Virus record (IMG/VR): IMGVR_UViG_3300028887_000090
Coordinates: 1 to 64,000 of that record
DNA from: a virus
Lineage: Duplodnaviria; Caudoviricetes
Strand: one strand, 5' to 3'
DNA length: 64,000 nucleotides
The notes below the pieces were generated by a model. The model did no database searches. It worked only from the letters and a program-made list of their open reading frames with translations, and was not told the DNA's origin. The translations under genes were made by a program, and so were the position numbers. Below, piece after piece: positions 6,190 to 56,088 of this stretch (position 1 is its first letter; each line of letters starts with the position of its first letter).

Positions 6190-6251
6190 TAGGGTGGCCG
6201 TCCATTAGTTCATTAATTCATTGGTTCATTAATTCATAAATTTATAAGGAT

Positions 6252-6542
6252 ATGGCAAAGAAGAAGTATGTGATGACCGAGGAAGATAAACAGTATTTTC
6301 TTCGTCAGGGCTATAAGGTGAAGGATATGGCAAATATACAGAAGTGTATCAACACTGTGCGCCTGGTGATGACAAATGGTTATGGTGAACAGCAGATCAC
6401 ACCAAAGAACGCTATCAATGTGTTGGGCCGTGAAAAGTTCCTGAGTGGTGTTGACCGTGCTATGGGCCACATGACTTGTGCGCGTGCCAGTGACATTCAT
6501 CCTGGCTTGGGTGTGTGTTTCTCGTTGGCTCATCTATGGTAA
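6252..6542 (+). CDS. hypothetical protein
   Basis: 96-aa ORF. Confidence 0.7.
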   Translation: MAKKKYVMTEEDKQYFLRQGYKVKDMANIQKCINTVRLVMTNGYGEQQITPKNAINVLGREKFLSGVDRAMGHMTCARASDIHPGLGVCFSLAHLW

Positions 6543-15404: not shown

Positions 15405-16397
15405 GCCGAAGTCCTGAAGGTACTGTCGGCATCTGAATCCCTTTCGTGGTTCAAACTCCTCAAACGAATGGGCGACGAAGTGCGCCTTTTTGTTCACCCA
15501 TCCCGCCAGATCTTTCTGCCATTGCGGAATGATGTGGCGGGGATTGTTTGGGTCACGGTAGGGCTGGGCATGTGGATAGACGTAACGGCCTTCGTGTGCA
15601 GCCCGTGTCTCTTGTGTACGGTGCCACCAGTGTACGATGCGCTCGTAGCATTCCCTGAAGTCTGAGGTGAGCATAGTATAAAGGAAATACTGACCCGTGA
15701 AACCGTATTTGTTTATCATTTCCATCGCCCGCTCACATTCTTCTATCTGGGCGTGGGTGTCACAACCGAAACGGATGCGGTTGTTATCGAGCCACTTCAC
15801 CTTGGCCAGCAGCTGTGCTATCTCATCCGTTACCAGTCGTGCATCGAGTGCCTGATTGAAGTCCACACGGTAGCCTCGTTCGATGATCTTGCGTAGCTGC
15901 TGCAAGCAGTAGTCGCCAGCAGCCAGGATATTGTTATCCATCAGCACCAGTTTACGACGGCCTTCAATGGCTATTTCGTCCACATCCATGTATGGGCGTA
16001 TCAGTCCCTCTTTCTTTGGTACCACACACCAACGGCATTTGTTGGGACAGCCGCGAGTCAGAAAACCGTAGGCCGTATCTTTCGGTACGTTTGGATAGAT
16101 GTCGTAGAGTGGTTGCAGCCGGTCTATCTCATCGGGTAGGGTAGAGTGTATGTCGTAGCCGGTGCCTCCCTTGATGATTTTGTCGGCCTGATAGATAAAG
16201 GTATCGTCGGGTGTAAAGTTGAACACCTTCGACATGTAGATAATATCATAGTGTTTCATGGGTGTGGCCCACTCGATTTGCCCCCCCCTATTATGCCAGT
16301 ATCTCGCAATCTTTCCGAGTGCGAGGTTAGGGTAAATCGTGGCTCCCCATTTCTTCTTTTTGGCGTGTCCGTCCACGTCCACAAGTCCTATTTGCAT
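15399..16397 (-). CDS. radical SAM protein with in-frame G8 tract
   Basis: TRGCPNKCRWC; C8 on + strand at 16281-16288. Confidence 0.9.
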   Translation of the reverse strand: MQIGLVDVDGHAKKKKWGATIYPNLALGKIARYWHNRGGQIEWATPMKHYDIIYMSKVFNFTPDDTFIYQADKIIKGGTGYDIHSTLPDEIDRLQPLYDIYPNVPKDTAYGFLTRGCPNKCRWCVVPKKEGLIRPYMDVDEIAIEGRRKLVLMDNNILAAGDYCLQQLRKIIERGYRVDFNQALDARLVTDEIAQLLAKVKWLDNNRIRFGCDTHAQIEECERAMEMINKYGFTGQYFLYTMLTSDFRECYERIVHWWHRTQETRAAHEGRYVYPHAQPYRDPNNPRHIIPQWQKDLAGWVNKKAHFVAHSFEEFEPRKGFRCRQYLQDFGL

Positions 16398-17433: not shown

Positions 17434-18031
17434 TCAGTTAAACCATTTAATAACTGTGTCCCCTTTGTAACCTTTTTCCCAGACAAACCAGGCGTAGGCG
17501 ACAGCGGAGCCTTTAACGTTGGCGAAGTCACCATTGGGAGCACAGAGCAGACGTGAGCTGCTGACCCATACTCGTGCCGGTGGCTGTGTCTGGAAGAGGT
17601 GTTTGCGGGCCTTACCTTCGAGGAAGGTGAGTTTGAGGAACATCGCCACCTTGTGACCAGTGGGGATAATGGCCAAGGCTTTCTCCACAAACGCCTGAGC
17701 AAAGGCGTAGGGTGGGTTTGTGATGATATCGCCCGACCATTCCACGTTGTCGATAGCCAGAAAGTCTGCCACTTCGCCATAGCCGCGATCGATGATATCC
17801 CTGGAAATGACGGAATACCCCCCCCCTCGTAAGTACTTCGGCAATATGCCCTTCACCACATGCCGGTTCGAGTATCGGCCCATCGAAGTGCTCCAGCTTC
17901 AGTAGCCACTCCGTAGCCTTCGGCTCTGTGGCATAGTAATCCTGTGCCACTCGATCACCATCGGCATGGTTGCTGGCACTGATGCCTTTGAATACGGAGG
18001 CGCTGCCTCCAGTCCAATCTTTATTCTTCAT
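17434..18031 (-). pseudogene. NPPY-type DNA amino-methyltransferase frameshifted at a G9 tract (intact with G8)
   Basis: DYYAT, ILEPACGEGH in one frame and DIITNPPY in another; junction is C9 at 17818-17826. Confidence 0.85.
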
Positions 18032-20601: not shown

Positions 20602-21389
20602 TTAATAAATATCGAAATCAAATGTCAGTTGTCGGCTTGCTTCTTTTATCCGGTTTTGGGCGTAGTCGAACCAATAAGGGTCGCGCTCTATACCGATGTA
20701 TTTGCGATGCTCGATGATAGCAGCTACGCAGGTGGTGCCTGATCCCATCGTATTGTCGAGAATTACCCCCCCATATTGCTATATGAGCGAATGAGATAGC
20801 GCATTAGATCCACGGGCTTTTGTGTGGGATGCTTCTGGCCCTCGCTGCAATGGATGGCTGGGATGGTGATAATGCTACGTGGGTGCTTCTTATCGGTATA
20901 GGTGGGATTGATGCGCTTCATGTTGCCATAACACTGGTTGGTCTCTACCTCGGTGGCATGACCTTGCGAGTGGTTTGGCTCGCGCCCATTCAATGCCTCC
21001 ATCTGAGGATGGTACACCGGCAGCTGCTTATAGAACACACAGATATCCTCGTGGTAGCGCAATGGCATGCGGTTGGCATTCAGGAATCCCGTAGCACGGC
21101 ATTTGTCCCATACCAGGTTATAGCGCCATAGCTTCTGATTGCTCATCATCAGTTGGGCCGTAAACATACCAGAGGCAAAGAGTACGATGGCACCGTGTGG
21201 TTTGATGATACGCTCGTAATGCGTCCACAGCGGAGCAAAGGGAATTACCACGTCCCATTGAGCGTGTTTATTTCCTTTGTTCAATACGCCGTAAGGCAGA
21301 TCGCAGATAATGGCATCGATGCTCTTATCAGCTATCCCGTCCATCACCTCCAGACAGTCGCCCTGGTATATGTTGTTTGGCTCAATCAT
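20602..21389 (-). pseudogene. beta-class N4/N6 DNA methyltransferase frameshifted at a G7 tract (intact with G8)
   Basis: GDCLE, DLPY, HPTQKP, then stop; adding one G at C7 20766-20772 continues VILDNTMGSGTTCVAA...YIGIERD to stop at 20602. Confidence 0.9.
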
Positions 21390-21393
21390 TGAT

Positions 21394-21957
21394 TTATGAT
21401 TTAATGATTTCATCAATGGGTTTGTCGCTCTTTACGCCGACGATGATCTCAGCAATACATCGCCTTTTGCCTTCATCGTCTGTAATATGTTTGGTGGATA
21501 TGATTTCGGTGTCGATGATATCCATTAACAAATTATACTTAGCGGTATGTTCGATGTCTTTATATCTTCGTGACCGTTCCTCGTTACTACACTCTATTAC
21601 AAAGTCTCTCTCGTATTTGATAAAACCAGTAATTGTTTCCATTCTAACGGAGGCTGTGCGTATTTTTAATTCTCTGTTATCTCTGAATGGATCGTTGATG
21701 TCGGCCAACTGTTCCGTCAGTTTTGCATTCTGTTCTACCAGCACTTTGCCACCCTCCAGGAGAGATTCGTTTTCGCGCTTCATCTTATTATAGAGGTGAC
21801 GGAAAACGACGTTGCTCACGATGATAAGAAGGTAGAGCAAATCGATAATGGCATGAAACATATCGCCACGAATGAAAAACGCTACCGTAAAGAATGCGAG
21901 TCCACCAAACAGCAGTATGTTGATGGCCCAACTAAGTATATTGCTAAGTTTCTTCAT
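21394..21957 (-). CDS. membrane protein
   Basis: two N-terminal hydrophobic helices. Confidence 0.7.
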   Translation of the reverse strand: MKKLSNILSWAINILLFGGLAFFTVAFFIRGDMFHAIIDLLYLLIIVSNVVFRHLYNKMKRENESLLEGGKVLVEQNAKLTEQLADINDPFRDNRELKIRTASVRMETITGFIKYERDFVIECSNEERSRRYKDIEHTAKYNLLMDIIDTEIISTKHITDDEGKRRCIAEIIVGVKSDKPIDEIIKS

Positions 21958-24041: not shown

Positions 24042-24407
24042 TCAATCTTCAATTCCTAATACATCGTGGTAGAAGTCGAGGGCCTTGCGGGTAGCGATGG
24101 ATGCCTTATGCTGATCCTCGCGTCGCTGTCGCTCAATCTCAAAGAGGCGTTTACGCTCGCGCTTTTCCTTGATGCCCTCCCGTCGGGCTTGCTCCTGCAT
24201 ATAGATGGTGTTACGCAGTTCGTTGTTGTCGAGTGCTTCGGCTATCATGCGGGTATTCGTCTGCATCAGTGGGCGTACAATCTCATCGATGACCCAGCCA
24301 GGCTTTTCGAGCAATGCCGCTTTCAGATCTTCGGCTGGGAAACGGATGACGTGCTTACCATCGTCATCCATTCCCACCACGTCGTTAATCTTCAGATGTA
24401 GTTCCAT
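24042..24407 (-). CDS. hypothetical protein
   Basis: ORF 24042..24434; ATG at 24407. Confidence 0.65.
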   Translation of the reverse strand: MELHLKINDVVGMDDDGKHVIRFPAEDLKAALLEKPGWVIDEIVRPLMQTNTRMIAEALDNNELRNTIYMQEQARREGIKEKRERKRLFEIERQRREDQHKASIATRKALDFYHDVLGIED

Positions 24408-24906
24408 TGGGGTTATCGGCTGTGCGAACGACACTCTGATTGGGTAGTCCTAAGCTCAGGAAACCATTTTTATCGCGTATGGCTTTGCAGACGGCAATCT
24501 CTGCATTCTCATATTCGAGTTGAGCCTGAGCACGCTTGCGCATACGTTCTGTTGCACTCTGAGCCAGTTTAGCCTCGTAGTCCTCACGCTTGCACGAAAA
24601 CTGATATTTCAGTTCGGTCATCTTTGTGCGGATGTCGGCCATTTCTATTCTGGCTGCCGGTTCACCCTGTTTGGGTTTCAGTTCATCAAACTGTCGGCGA
24701 AGTTCGTCGAGCTGCATATCAAAATGGTGGCGCTCGATGTGGTACTCTCTACGGAGTTTCGCCTGGGTGTTGTCTGATTCTTCATTCGTGCGGTGGAAAA
24801 TGTTGTCGCGCACCTCACGGCACTTTTGACGGAGAGCAAATAGCTCATCTACCGTCATACCCTCCAAGTCATTTAGGGGGGGGTAATTTACGTTTTCTTG
24901 TTTCAT
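24385..24906 (-). CDS. coiled-coil protein with C8 tract near its 5' end
   Basis: 173-aa ORF; G8 on + strand at 24876-24883. Confidence 0.7.
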   Translation of the reverse strand: MKQENVNYPPLNDLEGMTVDELFALRQKCREVRDNIFHRTNEESDNTQAKLRREYHIERHHFDMQLDELRRQFDELKPKQGEPAARIEMADIRTKMTELKYQFSCKREDYEAKLAQSATERMRKRAQAQLEYENAEIAVCKAIRDKNGFLSLGLPNQSVVRTADNPNGTTSED

Positions 24907-35441: not shown

Positions 35442-36590
35442 ATGAGGTTTAATGTTTCCGCAAAAGAATTGCTCCGTGTGCTGAAGGCCACTGGAGCCGT
35501 GATGCAGAAGAAGTGTTCGCTGCCGATATTGCTCGACCACCTCTTTACCGAGCGTGATGGTAAATTCTTTATCACTGGTTCATCACAGGAAAACTCATTG
35601 TGCATGCCTATCAATCTGACGCTCGACAGCGAGACGGACTTTGAGAAGTTCTGCCTCCAGTGTAATGATATCATCGGACTGTTGGGCTCACTGCCTGAGC
35701 AGCCTGTGGAGATCGATGTGGATATGCAGGCATTGGTGGCGAAGTTCAAGTATGCCACTGGTATGGTGAGCGTCCCCGTAGAGCGTGCTGATGAATATCC
35801 CGCTGTGGCAAAGATGACCACCCCGACCACCAGTTTCGAGATAGAGACAAAAATTCTGTTCCCCGCGATGAAGGCTGCCACCTCGTGCTGTACGCCCGAC
35901 GATCCCTTGCGTCCCGTATTCAGTGCCGTATGTCTCGACGTGCAGGATGAGGGTGTTATCTTCGTGGCTACCAATGGTCATAAACTCTATAAGTATGCCT
36001 ACCAGCATGGCCTTCCGTTCCTGACGGGTGAGAAGCGTGTCATCCTGATACACAACTCGCTCATCGGTACCCTCTCCGCACCGTTCGCCGGTCTGGAAAC
36101 CGTTACTGTGACCCACGATGGTAAGCACATGTGTATCGAGTCTGGTGACATCGCCTTTACCATCCGCGATATCGAAGGTAAATATCCCAACTACAATTCA
36201 GTTATCCCGTCGGAATGCCCCTATCATGCTATCCTGCCCGTTTCGAACCTGATAGGTGCTGCCCGTCGTGTGTCGCTGATGGCCTCGGAGTCGTCGAATA
36301 TGGTACGACTGACTAAGGAAGGCATGTTCCTGAATCTCTCTGCCGAGGATAACGATTTTTCTAAGGCTGCCAACGAGAACCTGGTACTCGCCGAGGTGGA
36401 GGATGCCATGAATATCCCCGACGGCTTCAGTATCGGTTGTAAGTGTGCGCATATCATCGAATTGCTGGGTAACATCAGTACCGACAATGTGCGCCTGGAA
36501 CTCACTTCTAACTCGAAGCCCATCCTGTTCAAAGAGGATGCCGACAATTCCGTACTTACTGAGCTCACCATGCCCATGCAGTTGAATTAG
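35442..36590 (+). CDS. dnaN: DNA polymerase III beta sliding clamp
   Basis: LPIL, RPVFSAV, VATNGHKL, IEGKYPNYNSVIP, LTMPMQL. Confidence 0.93.
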   Translation: MRFNVSAKELLRVLKATGAVMQKKCSLPILLDHLFTERDGKFFITGSSQENSLCMPINLTLDSETDFEKFCLQCNDIIGLLGSLPEQPVEIDVDMQALVAKFKYATGMVSVPVERADEYPAVAKMTTPTTSFEIETKILFPAMKAATSCCTPDDPLRPVFSAVCLDVQDEGVIFVATNGHKLYKYAYQHGLPFLTGEKRVILIHNSLIGTLSAPFAGLETVTVTHDGKHMCIESGDIAFTIRDIEGKYPNYNSVIPSECPYHAILPVSNLIGAARRVSLMASESSNMVRLTKEGMFLNLSAEDNDFSKAANENLVLAEVEDAMNIPDGFSIGCKCAHIIELLGNISTDNVRLELTSNSKPILFKEDADNSVLTELTMPMQLN

Positions 36591-36591
36591 T

Positions 36592-36909
36592 ATGAGGAAA
36601 GAATACTATTGCTTCTACCAGATGGGGCATACCTTCTACTACATCTTTGACGATGGTACGGTACGCTCGACACGTAACGTACTGTCGCCCATCGATACGT
36701 GGAAGGTCATCGCCACCTATAACGGCAAGGGCTATCGTCGCATTCGCATTCAGGGTAAGACGTTCAAGGTGCATCGTCTCGTGGCCACGGCATTTATTCC
36801 AAACCCCGATAATCTGCCTTACGTCCTACATAAGGATGGCAACCGCGAGAACAATGATTTTAGAAATCTCGAATGGAGCGCCGTACAGTCAAATCACAAA
36901 GACCAGTAA
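36592..36909 (+). CDS. HNH endonuclease
   Basis: VHRLVATAFIPNP...VLHKDGNRENNDFRNLEW. Confidence 0.9.
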   Translation: MRKEYYCFYQMGHTFYYIFDDGTVRSTRNVLSPIDTWKVIATYNGKGYRRIRIQGKTFKVHRLVATAFIPNPDNLPYVLHKDGNRENNDFRNLEWSAVQSNHKDQ

Positions 36910-37039
36910 TATTGGGCCGTTATTCCGACTCGCAGAATGGCATTGTGGTATCTCCTGATGGTATCGCATTGTGTTTGGCAGGGGGGGTAATGGCCATGAT
37001 ACGGACAAACCAAAGGTATTGATAGAATATGAACTCTAA
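36873..37039 (+). pseudogene. TRD-like cassette A, out of frame (G7; G8 restores)
   Basis: MERR...SQNGIVVSPDGIALCLAG|GGNGHDTDKPKVLIEYEL*; tract 36981-36987. Confidence 0.8.
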
Positions 37040-37349
37040 TCGTATATTGCAGCGACACAACAGATGCGGAGGATTATGCCATAACTCTCCGCGTCTGCAT
37101 GCTGTGATAGTCCGTTGCTGTGTCTATCTGGGTGATTGTGGCGGTTGGTGGAACTCGATACATCCCTCCCGTCTGGGTATGATGATACTGAGGGTGATGA
37201 GCATCGATCCTTATGATATCTATAATAAGGTATATGATGGCTACACCACTCATAGCCGTTCGTATATCCGTGCTGATATCCGTTTCCGTTTGTCGTTGCT
37301 CCAGCAGCTGCTATTCCTTTTGTTGGTCATTCTCTTGCTATGCCTATGA
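37029..37349 (+). CDS. atypical ORF inside the cassette array (no G tract, no IEY tail)
   Basis: starts in the tail of cassette A; stop overlaps ATG of cassette B. Confidence 0.4.
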   Translation: MNSNRILQRHNRCGGLCHNSPRLHAVIVRCCVYLGDCGGWWNSIHPSRLGMMILRVMSIDPYDIYNKVYDGYTTHSRSYIRADIRFRLSLLQQLLFLLLVILLLCL

Positions 37350-37489
37350 AGGGTGAGGTGGTGATGGTGCTCGGATCGTTGCAGAACCATGCAGCGATAG
37401 TGGATGTACGAGGGGGGGGCAAAGCGTGTCCCTGCATCGGTACTACAGACTTTGGACTACCTAAAATAATCGTAGAATATGAATTGTAA
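37346..37489 (+). CDS. TRD-like cassette B, in frame (G8)
   Basis: MKGEVVMVLGSLQNHAAIVDVRGGGKACPCIGTTDFGLPKIIVEYEL*; tract 37412-37419. Confidence 0.8.
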   Translation: MKGEVVMVLGSLQNHAAIVDVRGGGKACPCIGTTDFGLPKIIVEYEL

Positions 37490-37630
37490 TGGTATAATAC
37501 GGGTAGGAAACCTATATTACGACTCGTTTCGTAATGGTTTCGATGGCAATGTTCAGGGCATTTCCGGCATTGCCCAGACCGTGTTAGCCGCAAATGGGGG
37601 GGGTATATCTTGATAGAGTATGAGATTTAA
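37479..37630 (+). pseudogene. TRD-like cassette C, out of frame (G8; G9 restores)
   Basis: MNCNGIIRVGNLYYDSFRNGFDGNVQGISGIAQTVLAANGGG|YILIEYEI*; tract 37596-37603. Confidence 0.8.
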
Positions 37631-37807
37631 GACGACTAATGTGGGCGTTACAAAGCCGATTAGGGGGGGCAAATCCGACCTGTCAATGTTACGCAAGATC
37701 TTTGCGCTGCCACTCTCACTACCCGCTACGATGCTGTTGGGCCTACTAATATTATCACTTTGGCCCATTACCCGATGACAGTTGTATTGATAGAGCATGA
37801 TTTGTAA
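37620..37807 (+). pseudogene. TRD-like cassette D, out of frame (G7; G8 restores)
   Basis: MRFK...IRGG|QIRPVNVTQDLCAATLTTRYDAVGPTNIITLAHYPMTVVLIEHDL*; tract 37663-37669. Confidence 0.8.
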
Positions 37808-37979
37808 GGCTATTGGTTGGACGCGAAGCGGTTCCGGACGTGGTGATGTCATCAGTTACCATCTGAAGGATATCTGCAACTGCATTACTTCCTTTGTAGG
37901 GGGGGGTATTGGCAAGGATTCAGTAACAGGCATGTATAACACAACTCCGTATATTTTGATTGAGTATGAACTATTATAA
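37797..37979 (+). CDS. TRD-like cassette E, in frame (G8)
   Basis: MICKAIGWTR...KDICNCITSFVGGG...NTTPYILIEYELL*; tract 37899-37906. Confidence 0.8.
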   Translation: MICKAIGWTRSGSGRGDVISYHLKDICNCITSFVGGGIGKDSVTGMYNTTPYILIEYELL

Positions 37980-38156
37980 TTCGCGTCTGTGCGAAATGAT
38001 TAGGGGGGGCAATGGCGACCACAATATCATGGCGAAATGCTTGACACCTATAACCAGAACGCCCATCGTAAGGTAGCGATAACCGTTTTGGCTGGCATCA
38101 GTTCGCGAAACCACTATTTTGTTTGTGAAGAAAGAACCAATAAATTCAGAAAGTAT
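37966..38156 (+). pseudogene. TRD-like cassette F, out of frame (G7); with G8 it reads in frame into the MTase
   Basis: MNYYNSRLCEMIRGG|QWRPQYHGEMLDTYNQNAHRKVAITVLAGISSRNHYFVCEE; tract 38003-38009. Confidence 0.75.
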
Positions 38157-39698
38157 ATGATCGCAAAGATTTATCCCGACGGACACCCTGATCTTCAGGG
38201 TAAAAAGGATCCGAAGCATCCCGTGCGATACTTCGACATCCGAAAACTTACCCCCCCCGAATGCTATACACTCATGGGGGTACCGCAGCAGCGCATAGCG
38301 CAGCTGATGGCAACCGAAAAACGCCCATATACGGCATTTATCGGTGTAGAGGAGGAACTAAGGCTCTTTGGTCTGGAAGAGTCAGCCTCGATGAAAGATG
38401 TGCTGGATGCCTACAAGGAGGCGATGCAGAGTTGTGATGAGTTTGACCAGGAAACACAGAAGAAAATCGATGAAGGTTTTCTCAGTCCTGACAGCAGACC
38501 CACAACCGATGAAGATGGTGAGGAAATCATCTATCCCTACGACGATGAAGAGAGCTACCAACGTTACCTGGAGCAGTTGAAGGAGGATTTGGAAGGTAAC
38601 AAACTGGTACGTCAGAATTACGATGAAAGATACGCAAAGATCCGTGCCGCACCTACTGAGGAACGTTTTGGCGATGTGCAGATAATCTCAAATAGTTCGC
38701 ACTATAAACTCGCAGGAAACTCGATTGTCTGCGATGTGCTGATGTATATCTATGAAGAATTTCTCTATCCCACCGGTCGCCGTATTCCTACCGAGCAGCA
38801 GGATTTATTCGCGCTGCCGCAATTCCGTTTAGAGCGCGACTGGAAGAAGAAACCATTGAAACTTGTTACGCTATGCTCTGGCTATGACTCGCAGGCCATT
38901 GCCTTCGACATGCTGAAAGAGCGTTATCCTGATTTTGATTACGAGCTGACGGCATGGGCTGAGTTTGACCCTGAGAGCAAGCGCCCATTGGAAGAGCAAC
39001 CCGCAGTGGTGGCCCATAATCTGCTATTCCCTCAGTGGGCCGACCGTAATCGTGGTGATATGACCAAGTGTGATTGGAGTGACCTGAAGGATGCAGAGGT
39101 GGATTTTCTTACTTACTCTACGCCGTGTCAGTCGATCTCACAGGCAGGTAAGCGTGAGGGCATTAAGAAGGGATCTGAAACCCGTTCGGCTGTGCTCTGG
39201 TACACCGAGGAAGCCGTGAAGGTGATGAAACCGAAGATCCTGATGCAGGAGAATGTGCGTGCGCTGATAAACAGCGTGAACATGCCCGACTTCAAGGAGT
39301 GGTGTCAGCTGCTGGAGAAATATGGTTACGTGAACTTCCTTGCGCCCTCATTCCCGACATTGTGGGGAGAGACCAAACGCGACAAAAAAACCATTCCTGG
39401 CATTCTCAATTCGAAGCACTATGGCGTGCCTCAGAACCGCGAGCGCGTCTATATGATTTCTATCCGTCAGGATGTGTTGGGTGATACGCAGTATGAGTTC
39501 CCGCGTCCTTTCCCCCTGGATAAGTGTATTGCCGACATTCTGGAGTCAGATGTCGATGAGCGTTTCTTCCTGAAGCCCGACTCAGTGATTAAGTTCCTGA
39601 CTGTGAATGAGAGTGACCAGAAGGCTCAGATCTTCTATGTAGTGACTGACCATAAGTTGACGGATGAAGAAATCGCCCAGGCTCGTAGTCGTAAGTAG
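38157..39698 (+). CDS. circularly permuted DNA (cytosine-5)-methyltransferase
   Basis: order IX (IRKLTPPECYTLMG), X (YKLAGNSIV), I (TLCSGYDS), IV (STPCQSISQAG), VI (MQENV), VIII (GVPQNRERVY); ORF open from 38037, probable ATG 38157. Confidence 0.92.
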   Translation: MIAKIYPDGHPDLQGKKDPKHPVRYFDIRKLTPPECYTLMGVPQQRIAQLMATEKRPYTAFIGVEEELRLFGLEESASMKDVLDAYKEAMQSCDEFDQETQKKIDEGFLSPDSRPTTDEDGEEIIYPYDDEESYQRYLEQLKEDLEGNKLVRQNYDERYAKIRAAPTEERFGDVQIISNSSHYKLAGNSIVCDVLMYIYEEFLYPTGRRIPTEQQDLFALPQFRLERDWKKKPLKLVTLCSGYDSQAIAFDMLKERYPDFDYELTAWAEFDPESKRPLEEQPAVVAHNLLFPQWADRNRGDMTKCDWSDLKDAEVDFLTYSTPCQSISQAGKREGIKKGSETRSAVLWYTEEAVKVMKPKILMQENVRALINSVNMPDFKEWCQLLEKYGYVNFLAPSFPTLWGETKRDKKTIPGILNSKHYGVPQNRERVYMISIRQDVLGDTQYEFPRPFPLDKCIADILESDVDERFFLKPDSVIKFLTVNESDQKAQIFYVVTDHKLTDEEIAQARSRK

Positions 39699-39880
39699 TG
39701 CCGTGTTGCGGGGTGTTCGTACTGAGCATGCCCGTGCCGTGCGCCGCATTTACGGAGATAGGGGGGGGGCATTGCCACTTCTCTGACCGTAATTTTCTTC
39801 CGGCTACTGATGGGTGTAGTAATACGATAACTGGAATATTGAAGGATAATTTGTTATTGATTGAGTATGATGATCATTAA
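39664..39880 (+). pseudogene. TRD-like cassette G, out of frame (G9; G8 restores)
   Basis: MKKSPR...VRTEHARAVRRIYGDRGG|HCHFSDRNFLPATDGCSNTITGILKDNLLLIEYDDH*; tract 39761-39769. Confidence 0.8.
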
Positions 39881-40049
39881 AGAGACTGAGCCAACTGCCG
39901 ATATGAAGCCTGTTCGAATATCGGCAAGCCGTGGTAGGGGGGGGCAAAACGCTACCCACCAAGTCATCGAATTAGGGTCATGGCAAGCAACGAACACAAT
40001 TACCTCAGTACAGAAGGATAATATTGTATGGATAGAGCGAGATTTATAA
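39867..40049 (+). CDS. TRD-like cassette H, in frame (G8)
   Basis: ...SASRGRGGQNATHQVIELG...TNTITSVQKDNIVWIERDL*; tract 39937-39944. Confidence 0.8.
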   Translation: MMIIKETEPTADMKPVRISASRGRGGQNATHQVIELGSWQATNTITSVQKDNIVWIERDL

Positions 40050-40177
40050 GGAATGTGGGGGGGGTATATTCGCAATGTACTCCCGACTTCAACCGAGGTT
40101 GGCTTTGGGGCCTCTCTCGATGTATCAAAGCCTCGATGAATGATGCCGCAATATTGATAGAGTATGACTATGAATAG
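40028..40177 (+). CDS. TRD-like cassette I, in frame (G8)
   Basis: MDRARFIRNVGGVYSQCTPDFNRGWLWGLSRCIKASMNDAAILIEYDYE*; tract 40057-40064. Confidence 0.8.
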   Translation: MDRARFIRNVGGVYSQCTPDFNRGWLWGLSRCIKASMNDAAILIEYDYE

Positions 40178-40327
40178 GAAATATAAGATAGGTGTTCATA
40201 TCGTAGGCCATCGTTTAGAGTGGCACGGCGAGGGGGGGCAGACTCGACTATGTGGAAAGATATCTGTCCTTGCATTCGCATGAATGATTATAAATGTCCG
40301 ATGAATATATTGATTGAGTATGAGTAA
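40164..40327 (+). pseudogene. TRD-like cassette J, out of frame (G7; G8 restores)
   Basis: MTMNRKYKIGVHIVGHRLEWHGEGG|ADSTMWKDICPCIRMNDYKCPMNILIEYE*; tract 40232-40238. Confidence 0.8.
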
Positions 40328-40574
40328 GGTACGCCATTTCAAACCTCGGTGTCCCTTCCTTCAGATTGCTACGAGGGGGGGGCAAATCGTGTTACAAGTT
40401 CGTCAGGCAACCGAGCAAGGCTATATCGAATGCGTCAGTGGTGGCGTGTTCGATATGGCTTACCCTACGTCTCAGCTTCGTCGCGCCCGTGTCAAAGACG
40501 ATGGCCGTGTGGCATCGGCATTGATGGCAGGAGAAACCTCACAATGTGTATTTCTGGAGTATGACCTCGATTAA
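40320..40574 (+). CDS. TRD-like cassette K, in frame (G8)
   Basis: ...TRGGQIVLQVRQATEQGYIECVSGGVFDMAYPTSQLRRARV...VFLEYDLD*; tract 40375-40382. Confidence 0.85.
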   Translation: MSKVRHFKPRCPFLQIATRGGQIVLQVRQATEQGYIECVSGGVFDMAYPTSQLRRARVKDDGRVASALMAGETSQCVFLEYDLD

Positions 40575-40761
40575 ACTATCCAAGACTACCTCCGCACCTC
40601 CAAGGGCTTATGGGGGGGGGTATTTGTTGCCTGTCAACACCGCAGCAGGAGGAATCTGTTGCACACTCAATACCAGATACGACGGCATGCAGTTGCCGGA
40701 GGACATCTTATCACTCGCACACTATCCTAAGACGGTTGTGCTCATCGAATACAATCTATAA
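40561..40761 (+). CDS. TRD-like cassette L, in frame (G9)
   Basis: ...YGGGYLLPVNTAAGGICCTLNTRYDG...LAHYPKTVVLIEYNL*; tract 40612-40620. Confidence 0.8.
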   Translation: MTSIKLSKTTSAPPRAYGGGYLLPVNTAAGGICCTLNTRYDGMQLPEDILSLAHYPKTVVLIEYNL

Positions 40762-40764
40762 TTT

Positions 40765-40798
40765 GTCACATGGTTACGTTGTTTTACCCCTAACTTTG
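40765..40798 (+). promoter_or_regulatory. putative late promoter
   Basis: GTCAC-N21-TAACTTTG. Confidence 0.6.
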
Positions 40799-40829
40799 TG
40801 GCGTATTAATATTTAAAAAGGTATATAGT

Positions 40830-41492
40830 ATGGAAACTTTCTCAATTATGGAACCGTGCTGCATAGGGCATCAACTGCCGCAGCTGCTGAAAAAGTACCC
40901 GCTTGCTACGTGGCAGTCGAATGGTGATGTGACCTTCGATAAACTGATGAAAGCCATCAGTTGTCTGGCAGGCAACTCTCTGACCGTGAAGATCGTCATC
41001 CCGACGATAGATATTCCGATGCTAAGATTGTTGCTCTGGTATCGCCAGCGCGAGTGGCTGAAAGAGGTGGCCATCCTGACCAAAGACGACCAGACGGCCT
41101 TGATGCGCTCACAGTTGGGCATGGACTTTCCGCTGACTGCGAGACACCATGACTCGGTGGTGGAGTCGCTGCTGGTGATAGAGGGCGAGAAAGCCACCGT
41201 CATCGTGCAGGGTGCCTTGCTGAGTGTGGTCACACCAGGACAGTATCATTATACCACCTATGTAGGCACCGACCAGGAGCGCATCGACATGCTGGTATCG
41301 TCGGCATGGTCGCTGTTCCGTCTGGCAGGTCGAAAAGGTGGAAAGAAGGGCAAGGAAGCCGCTGAGGAAACGGATGAGAAGCCGTCGGAGGCCGCTGCCG
41401 AACAGCCCGAAGATAATAACGAAAAACCCGTAGAGCATGAAGATACGACTGAAGAACCCGCTGAAAGCGTGGAGGGAACACAGGAAGCGTAA
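40830..41492 (+). CDS. hypothetical protein with acidic tail
   Basis: 220-aa ORF. Confidence 0.75.
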   Translation: METFSIMEPCCIGHQLPQLLKKYPLATWQSNGDVTFDKLMKAISCLAGNSLTVKIVIPTIDIPMLRLLLWYRQREWLKEVAILTKDDQTALMRSQLGMDFPLTARHHDSVVESLLVIEGEKATVIVQGALLSVVTPGQYHYTTYVGTDQERIDMLVSSAWSLFRLAGRKGGKKGKEAAEETDEKPSEAAAEQPEDNNEKPVEHEDTTEEPAESVEGTQEA

Positions 41493-55848: not shown

Positions 55849-56088
55849 ATAGGTCTAATGTTGGAGTGAAACAGGGGGGGGGTAAAATCGCCCTTCAGAG
55901 GAAACGGTCTGAGTCGTACCGCCATGTTGTTTAAGATAGCGACGCTGGCAGGTCATAAACTGACTATTCCAGAAATGAATAAGTTTAAAGAGGTGAATCC
56001 TCGTAGTCTTGAACAAGTATATAATGAAGTGGTTCGCGTAGGCGATGCCGGTAATGCCCGATTCGCTTTGCAACTGATATTAAAATAA
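55845..56088 (+). pseudogene. hypothetical gene of about 80 aa, frameshifted at G9 (intact with G8)
   Basis: ATG overlaps upstream stop; removing one G at 55874-55882 opens the frame to TAA at 56088, 4 nt before the next ATG. Confidence 0.7.

Follow-up and report, generated by a model that had tools for sequence, protein, structure and literature searches.

A short motif as a probable gene joint between free-standing target-recognition mini-genes in a phage cytosine methyltransferase locus

Introduction

Multispecific C5 cytosine methyltransferases are known from the temperate Bacillus phages SPR, phi3T, rho11s and H2, and M.(phi)BssHII carries its target recognition domains (TRDs) at separated locations (cited in PMC8936443). 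Naturally circularly permuted C5 methyltransferases include M.BssHII, M.Alw26I, M2.Eco31I, M.Esp3I and M2.BsaI (PMC5944983). M.AquI and M.EcoHK31I consist of two chains, and fragment complementation has been described for M.BspRI, M.BsuRI, M.HhaI and M.SssI (PMC3404938). The one-nucleotide overlap between hsdM and hsdS of EcoKI is an example of coupling between a stop and a start codon (PMC3510504), while the bacterial Type III mod and Type I hsdS phasevarions are methyltransferases made phase-variable by simple repeats (PMC5909438, PMC7383803). Here we analyze a short motif in a 64,000-nucleotide stretch of DNA from a phage of the Caudoviricetes (positions 1 to 64,000 of the IMG/VR virus record IMGVR_UViG_3300028887_000090, hereafter the window), which is part of a single 101,851-bp contig. 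The motif lies at the ends of a series of small cassettes on both sides of a C5 methyltransferase gene.

The cassettes differ in most of their sequence and share a C-terminal tail of three hydrophobic residues and Glu, usually followed by Tyr-Glu or Tyr-Asp, and the DNA that encodes this tail also contains the ATG of the following unit. We put at roughly three in four the probability that the motif is a gene joint between free-standing TRD mini-genes, which would act at once as the edge of a TRD, as the start of the next gene and as the boundary of a module. Handles such as L001 denote related loci throughout.

Results

A 16-base joint is confined to the cassette locus

A sequence-only reading of the window had listed eleven tails and nine start codons within them, and every one of these is present in the DNA (Table 1). 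Each of the nine ATGs begins at the second base of the Tyr or His codon of its tail. Two features had been missed: the VWIERDL tail also supplies a start, ATG 40028 within GTATGG, and the last tail of the array (40738; codons GTG CTC ATC GAA TAC AAT) is without an ATG, its positions 5-6 being written TAC AAT. Furthermore, the ATG at 37029 opens an open reading frame (ORF) of 106 residues, not a recognition cassette.

A six-frame search of the 101,851-bp contig for the tail peptide followed by a stop within three codons gave 11 matches, always in this locus and on the plus strand, and all 6 occurrences of the DNA pattern TTGAT(A/T)GA(A/G)TATGA in the genome lie in the same locus. Among the 9 canonical joints, mean pairwise identity was 0.6-1.0 over positions -12 to +3 of the ATG and about 0.25 on either side. 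Since the conserved island spans only -12 to +3 and its flanks are at background, the motif is not a leftover of a recent duplication of whole cassettes. Within its 16 bases the joint closes one mini-protein and supplies the start codon of the one that follows.

We compared the 50 internal joints of five loci, namely the window and L001-L004. Their usual wording is TTGATAGAGTATGA, in which the frame of the next ATG contains a TGA or TAG and the third frame a TGA. The stop in the frame of the tail itself follows 7-21 nt past the A of the ATG, and 43 of the 50 joints contain ATGA; the next start overlaps the preceding stop or lies beside it. At 45 of the 50 joints, all three frames meet a stop within -12 to +21 of the ATG. 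Each cassette in the lineage of the window also carries a run of seven to nine G (G7-G9), and when the units were read in the wrong frame after this tract, 49 of 50 readings did not run past the joint, and in 19 of these the stop lay within the joint. Because most joints hold stops in all frames, each mini-gene would start afresh regardless of the state of the poly-G tract upstream of it.

The sequence-only reading had also proposed that a cassette switched out of frame (OFF) could lower the translation of its neighbor. The sequence lends this no support: nearly all wrong-frame readings end by the joint, and the joint resembles the ordinary start context of the phage, which is A/T-rich, free of Shine-Dalgarno sequences and has T at -1. 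In a survey of this context, a Shine-Dalgarno-like core was found in 1 of 54 phage genes and T at -1 in 40 of 54, and the gene starts showed an A-rich stretch at -14 to -12. Because the joint resembles these ordinary starts, independent initiation at the joint is possible.

The joint ATG is kept within arrays and mostly lost at their ends

In 19 loci, internal tails contain (T/C)ATG in 106 of 118 cases, whereas array-terminal tails have lost the ATG in 10 of 15. The terminal tails of L007, L052 and L006 keep the peptide ILIEYDL and write its Tyr-Asp as TAC GAT, and four more tails in the survey of terminal tails have Arg at the Tyr/His position. Codon choice within the window follows the same division. 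Internal tails use TTG, ATA or ATT, and TAT, with TTG in 7 of 7 tails that have Leu at position 2 and ATC in none of the 8 internal Ile codons, although these are minority or only moderately used codons in the genome (fractions of 0.60 for TAT, 0.13 for ATA and 0.19 for TTG); the terminal tail uses the genome-preferred CTC, ATC and TAC.

We also resampled the tails with synonymous codons drawn from the genome's own usage. The full combination (ATG, ATGA and a stop in the frame of the ATG shortly before it) is present in 8 of 9 window joints compared to 3.1 expected, and a count of 8 of 9 was reached in 1 of 2000 simulations; L001, L003 and L004 behaved alike. Given the loss of the ATG from terminal tails, the codon choice and the excess over resampling, the ATG is selected as the start of the next gene, and the Tyr-(Glu/Asp) of the tail is largely the footprint of this start codon. 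The same three lines of evidence support, at the level of sequence, the earlier proposal of a translational joint.

The cassettes flank a permuted methyltransferase core and are homologous to TRDs

The gene in the middle of the array encodes a C5 methyltransferase in which motifs IX (RKLTPPE) and X (AGNSIV) precede motif I (LCSGYDS), PCQ, ENV and QNRER. The enzyme is thus of the permuted order, with IX-X before I-VIII, and in its PDB matches, M.MpeI and M.HhaI, motif X was matched ahead of motifs I-VIII. The cassettes sit before motif IX and after motif VIII, which places them topologically between VIII and IX, as TRDs. The ORF proper has 553 codons (38037-39698), and an N-terminal extension that starts at the joint ATG 37966 is OFF in the window, with a G7 at 38003-38009; in-frame forms of this extension are present in many homologues. 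The invariant Met of MIAKIYPDG, at 38157, stands just past a cis TRD that ends in NHYFVCEE, and the gene call P0001 (513 aa, 100% identity to the window core) has the length expected from this Met. On account of these two observations, a TRD-less core is plausible. A run of eight C at 38251-38258 lies inside LTPPE of motif IX and recurs at the same place in L001 and L002; the poly-C of L003 is at GVPPP (6250-6259), and L004 has none. Runs of nine C in L002 and ten C in L003 break the frame of the core.

A profile of one cassette class (A1/C13-type), searched against 1.84 billion representative proteins, returned 78 clusters, 77 of which are stand-alone proteins of 43-111 aa. The tail is the C-terminus of nearly all these small homologues, and the joint ATG is the start of many of them. 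Every cassette of the locus ends in a stop as well, and the array is therefore not a single polypeptide. The sole long hit, the 436-aa protein P0187 (E=6.7e-5), consists of about 8 TRD-like units, each ending in a hydrophobic-acidic edge, followed by motifs IX and X. L050 and L051 encode phage enzymes of the canonical layout, in which tandem in-frame TRDs stand between motifs I-VIII and IX-X, and a tract-free orthologue of cassette C7 in L034 aligns to TRD 1 of L050 with 42% identity (E=7e-8), its tail falling on the end of that TRD. Furthermore, cassette C12 (40320-40571) matches phrog_16427 (DNA methyltransferase) at profile positions 61-110, which directly precede the positions matched by motif IX of the core. 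These alignments identify the cassettes as homologous to TRDs from multispecific phage C5 cytosine methyltransferases.

Other searches with the cassettes returned little. The A-type cassette matched TRDs only weakly (E=0.013). Pfam searches with ten in-frame cassettes gave nothing meaningful except a weak match to PF00145 (cis TRD plus motif IX, profile positions 197-290), a tblastn search with two cassettes against 50,697 phage records gave no match, and neither the cassette profile nor P0187 matched an entry in the PDB.

A different arrangement was seen in two loci of cultured Muribaculaceae, L055 (Lepagella muris) and L058 (Muribaculaceae Isolate-036), where a C5 methyltransferase of canonical order contains at least 7 fused TRDs. 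This fused gene is interrupted by runs of G11/G12 and C8 and adjoins two more methyltransferase genes, and its layout may be intermediate between the fused and the free-module forms.

The first half of the tail is shared with fused TRDs

An alternative is that the tail is above all a protein adaptor, a beta-strand with which each free TRD mini-protein would dock by strand addition onto the TRD-less core, beside its N-terminal strand MIAKIY, with the ATG as a harmless by-product of Tyr-(Glu/Asp). Every cassette class keeps the hydrophobic-Glu pattern, and the cis TRD of the core shows the same hydrophobic-acidic edge, NHYFVCEE, just before the invariant MIAKIYPDG; natural two-chain enzymes (M.AquI, M.EcoHK31I) and fragment complementation are also on record (PMC3404938). 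However, the part of the tail made of three hydrophobic residues and Glu is found equally at the TRD ends of fused multi-TRD enzymes, where docking in trans is needless. Positions 5-6, in turn, drift when no gene follows, to YN, YF, YL, RD or to YD written TAC GAT, and the codon choice of the tail is non-random beyond the demands of the peptide. The predicted structures offer no help to the adaptor either: AlphaFold2 models of the core made with 22 and then with 35 homologues had a mean predicted local distance difference test score (pLDDT) of 65 and 56, respectively, and both fell below 50 in the N-terminal TRD and the tail. We regard the adaptor as the strongest of the alternatives, though somewhat improbable as the main role of the motif. 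Since fused-enzyme TRD ends share them, the first four tail residues are, on this comparison, the inherited C-terminal edge of a TRD and not a special adaptor.

Cassettes are transposed and duplicated in units that end at joints

The order of orthologous cassettes differs among all loci; the C4-type unit, for instance, precedes the core in the window and L004 and comes after it in L001-L003. In five transposed pairs, identity per 15 columns climbs from background to 10-15 just before the ATG of the unit and is back to background just after the next ATG. In L003 a cassette is duplicated, and the two copies match from GAGTATGA to the next GATAGAGTATG, with no base matching beyond. The sequence-only reading had anticipated breakpoints at the motif, and this comparison of cassette order across homologous loci bears it out, in that the similarity of transposed and duplicated units ends at joints. 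Its suggestion that the motif serves as a microhomology for gain or loss of cassettes stands in part: the breaks do fall exactly at the joints, but recombination at the motif is indistinguishable from selection for whole modules. Recombination may occur in the motif itself.

In another alternative reading, the motif would be mainly a recombination substrate, composed of 14-16-bp direct repeats through which cassettes could be deleted, duplicated or exchanged, perhaps aided by the adjacent HNH endonuclease, with its coding and start roles secondary. The varying cassette order, the bounds of the L003 duplicate and the stop of homology of transposed cassettes within about 15 nt of joints all fit such a role, as does an HNH gene that adjoins cassette A and that in L013 is located at a joint. 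Yet selection for whole functional modules predicts the same breakpoints, and the specific loss of the ATG from terminal tails is unexpected for a pure recombination site. The repeat is also short, and neither a recombinase target nor an inverted repeat was found. We consider it unlikely that recombination is the main role of the motif.

Poly-G tracts vary between relatives and the cassettes are conserved as separate genes

Across loci, the tracts of in-frame cassettes are G8 (21 cases) or G9 (5), and out-of-frame tracts are one base shorter in 25 cases and one base longer in 12, being mostly G7 or G9. L001 and L002 share 96.8% identity and are separated by 15 indels, 7 of which are 1-2-base changes in G or C tracts. 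The features of phase variation by simple repeats are thus present: a homopolymer within the ORF, a length that differs among relatives and a frame that changes with it. Within the window, six units are in frame (starts 37340, 37797, 39867, 40028, 40320 and 40561), and the other 6 of the 12 tract-bearing units are out of frame (A, C2, C3, C7, C10 and the N-terminal extension of the core). For some of the latter the in-frame state was found in a relative: cassette A is in frame in L004, C2 is ON with G9 in L002, and C3 is ON with G8 in L002 and L004. When checked by hand, each of the classes A, B, C2, C3, C4, C12 and C13 had an in-frame copy in one or more of the five loci, and C10 was out of frame in 4 of the 4 loci that carry it.

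L014, L016, L017, L018 and L034 have the same joints and almost no G tracts, and their mini-ORFs run open from the joint ATG to the stop of the tail. Between these loci the ratio of nonsynonymous to synonymous differences (pN/pS) of the mini-ORFs is 0.13-0.37, and among the tract-free units of all surveyed loci 30 are open and 7 broken. These data indicate that the cassettes are real, separate genes. The opposite view, in which the cassettes are decaying remnants of a fused multi-TRD methyltransferase, their stops and broken frames reflect damage and their tail is merely inherited, can point to the fused relatives (P0187, L050 and the Muribaculaceae prophages L055/L058) and to the six out-of-frame units of the window, but it is very improbable given the purifying selection on mini-ORFs in the joint-ATG frame, the 30 of 37 tract-free units that are intact, the 77 clusters of stand-alone mini-proteins, the confinement of frame breaks to G tracts, where nearly identical phages differ by one base (7 of the 15 indels that separate L001 from L002), and the in-frame state, in at least one of five loci, of every hand-checked class except C10.

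Two other candidates were rejected. For a fusion of cassettes by a +1 frameshift or hop, no conserved shift site was found and the position of the stop varies by 0-3 codons; stops also lie just upstream in the frame of the next ATG, and the homologues in databases are small independent proteins. As a cause of the frame breaks, a uniform under-calling of homopolymers does not fit the presence of both -1 (25) and +1 (12) states, and the tract-free relatives are intact.

Homopolymer runs were also seen elsewhere in the window. On the minus strand, a gene for an N6-adenine (NPPY) methyltransferase at 17434-18031 is divided over two frames at a G9 (17818-17826); its S-adenosylmethionine-binding half (ILEPACGEG) and its NPPY half join only if the length of the run changes, and the gene looks like a second switchable methylase. 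What looks like a third lies at 20602-21416 on the minus strand, where a beta-class methyltransferase (HPTQKP ... MGSGTT) has a stop right after a G7 (20766-20772) and the next frame continues with motif I. Three further G/C runs have 8-9 bases each: 16281-16288, in frame and close to the start of a gene that encodes a CxxxCxxC-like motif; 24876-24883, in frame near the N-terminus of the ORF 24385-24906; and 55874-55882, between ORFs.

Locus layout and neighboring genes

From left to right, the locus holds a DNA polymerase III beta clamp gene, an HNH gene, 5 cassettes, the C5 methyltransferase gene and 6 cassettes ending at 40761 (Table 1). The HNH gene stands immediately 5' of cassette A, with the ATG of the cassette within its final codons, in the window, L002-L004 and L013, the loci where this stretch was read. 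In L013 (4009-4326) the pair of HNH gene and cassette A is placed inside the array, and the HNH gene begins at a joint ATG; the HNH gene may travel with cassettes or assist their movement.

Table 1. Coordinates of the genes and cassettes of the locus within the window. Each tail given is followed directly by a stop codon; the ATG column gives the start codon lying in that tail, or for cassette C8 the one that it supplies.
Feature	Coordinates	Strand	G tract and frame	Tail (start)	ATG	Remarks
HNH endonuclease gene	36592..36909	+				Pfam HNH_3, E=5.5e-7; 3' end contains the ATG of cassette A (36873)
Cassette A	36873..37039	+	G7 at 36981-36987, one G short, OFF	VLIEYEL (37016)	37029
106-aa ORF	37029..37349	+				Begins at a joint ATG; in the slot between cassettes A and B
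Cassette B	37340..37489	+	G8 at 37412-37419, in frame	IIVEYEL (37466)	37479
Cassette C2	37479..37630	+	G8 at 37596-37603, OFF	ILIEYEI (37607)	37620
Cassette C3	37620..37807	+	G7 at 37663-37669, OFF	VLIEHDL (37784)	37797	Joint written CATGA
Cassette C4	37797..37979	+	G8 at 37899-37906, in frame	ILIEYELL (37953)	37966	60 aa
Permuted C5 methyltransferase core with N-terminal extension	37966..39698	+				Pfam PF00145, E=1.4e-38
Cassette C7	39664..39880	+	G9 at 39761-39769, one G extra, OFF	LLIEYDDH (39854)	39867
Cassette C8	39867..40049	+	G8 at 39937-39944, in frame	VWIERDL (40026)	40028
Cassette C9	40028..40177	+	G8 at 40057-40064, in frame	ILIEYDYE (40151)	40164
Cassette C10	40164..40327	+	G7 at 40232-40238, OFF	ILIEYE (40307)	40320
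Cassette C12	40320..40574	+	G8 at 40375-40382, in frame	VFLEYDLD (40548)	40561	84 aa
Cassette C13	40561..40761	+	G9 at 40612-40620, in frame	VLIEYNL (40738)		Last of the array

The 106-aa ORF is not TRD-like: it has neither a tract nor a tail and its C-terminus is very hydrophobic. It contains a conserved IDPYDI...SYIRxDIR stretch, and similar ORFs are found at 5201-5398 in L001 and 3011-3229 in L002, where they are placed between the HNH gene and cassette A. It matched no Pfam family and no PHROG. Some cassettes with unrelated recognition parts have a Cys-rich start in common, CPVCCDTIAA or SVCCDTIAA (L001 5541-5756 and 8109-8411; P0176).

No Rfam family was found in 36500-41000 of the window, promoter-like and terminator-like sites were not more frequent than in shuffles, and a blastn search with the locus against phage records gave no match. 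A homologue of the core gene with 72% identity is present in L052, a 104-kb contig binned with a rumen Prevotellaceae genome. Because the phage genes lack Shine-Dalgarno sequences, are A-rich at -14 to -12 and have T at -1, a Bacteroidota host fits the sequence, and the phage is of the Prevotella type.

Discussion

We propose that each cassette, of about 45-85 codons, encodes one TRD of a multispecific C5 cytosine methyltransferase, and that both ends of the permuted catalytic core open into the TRD slot. The edge of three hydrophobic residues and Glu would have been inherited from ancestors with TRDs fused head to tail, and the Tyr/His and the G-initial codon after it would be kept mainly because TAT-G or CAT-G writes the next AUG. 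A ribosome would end at the joint in any frame after the poly-G tract, and the next mini-gene would restart in a fixed frame in the A/T-rich, Shine-Dalgarno-free context of the phage. The mini-proteins would dock on the core through the edge strand. The joint also marks the boundary at which related phages duplicate, move and exchange cassettes.

Several points weigh against this reading. The ATG is kept in 5 of 15 terminal tails, and 5 of the 50 internal joints have no close stop in the frame of the next ATG. The enrichment of stops in that frame is by itself modest (8 compared to 5.1 expected, reached in 68 of 2000 simulations), any Asp or Glu codon after TAT creates the ATGA stop by itself, and the excess of off-frame stops is confounded with the A/T-rich start context, as A/T-rich codons alone make such stops; the off-frame stops may have been selected rather than arisen as by-products. 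The surveyed loci are related, so the counts are not independent, and we infer the use of the joint ATGs in translation from their conservation only. The low pLDDT of the tail region in both models of the core belongs among these points as well.

A more far-reaching version of our proposal, which we put forward tentatively and at somewhat less than even odds, is a combinatorial epigenetic switchboard in which free TRDs dock through their edge strand on a TRD-less permuted core and are each switched by their own poly-G tract, while the joint, as a frame-resetting insulator with three-frame stops and a restart, keeps the switches independent, giving up to 2^12 methylation patterns. If this is true, up to 2^12 patterns in one phage population would be a hedge against restriction systems and methylation-dependent nucleases. 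If the mini-proteins act in trans, this would be the first C5 methyltransferase with exchangeable free specificity subunits, as in Type I systems, and the joint would let a dozen subunits be encoded, switched and shuffled independently.

The joint also yields a rule for annotation: a mini-gene is to be started at the (T/C)ATGA ATG of the previous tail and ended just past the next hydrophobic-Glu-Tyr tail. Gene callers at present miss such mini-genes or mis-start them. The modules could serve as a natural collection of small and portable parts for recognizing DNA in cytosine methylation.

A search of the papers available to us found no description of free TRD mini-genes or of the joint. Multispecific C5 enzymes, permuted C5 enzymes, ATGA overlaps and repeat-based phase variation are each known singly, and their combination appears to be new to the literature. 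The locus resembles the multispecific phage enzymes in combining one catalytic core with several short TRD modules, and the cassette tail corresponds to the C-terminal edge of each of their TRDs. However, those enzymes are single polypeptides, whereas here each TRD has its own gene, closed by stops in three frames and restarted inside the previous tail, and in the lineage of the window each also has its own poly-G tract. The core resembles the permuted enzymes of the M.BssHII type, which also place IX-X ahead of I-VIII and have their new termini within the variable (TRD) region (PMC5944983). M.BssHII-type enzymes are nevertheless complete single chains with one specificity, in contrast to the arrays of free TRD genes found here on both sides of the core. 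M.AquI and M.EcoHK31I provide a precedent for the non-covalent assembly of a C5 enzyme split in the variable region; they consist of two fixed halves, whereas in the putative assembly considered here many alternative small TRDs would compete for one core.

The likeness extends to gene organization. As in operon overlaps of the ATGA type, the downstream start lies inside or beside the upstream end, but here one joint is reused about ten times, is written into a conserved protein edge, comes with stops in three frames and is preceded in each unit by a tract prone to frameshifts. With phasevarions the locus shares homopolymer tracts in reading frames and one-base differences among close relatives; it differs from them in that the carrier is a phage and that the switches hit single specificity modules of a C5 enzyme rather than the whole enzyme.

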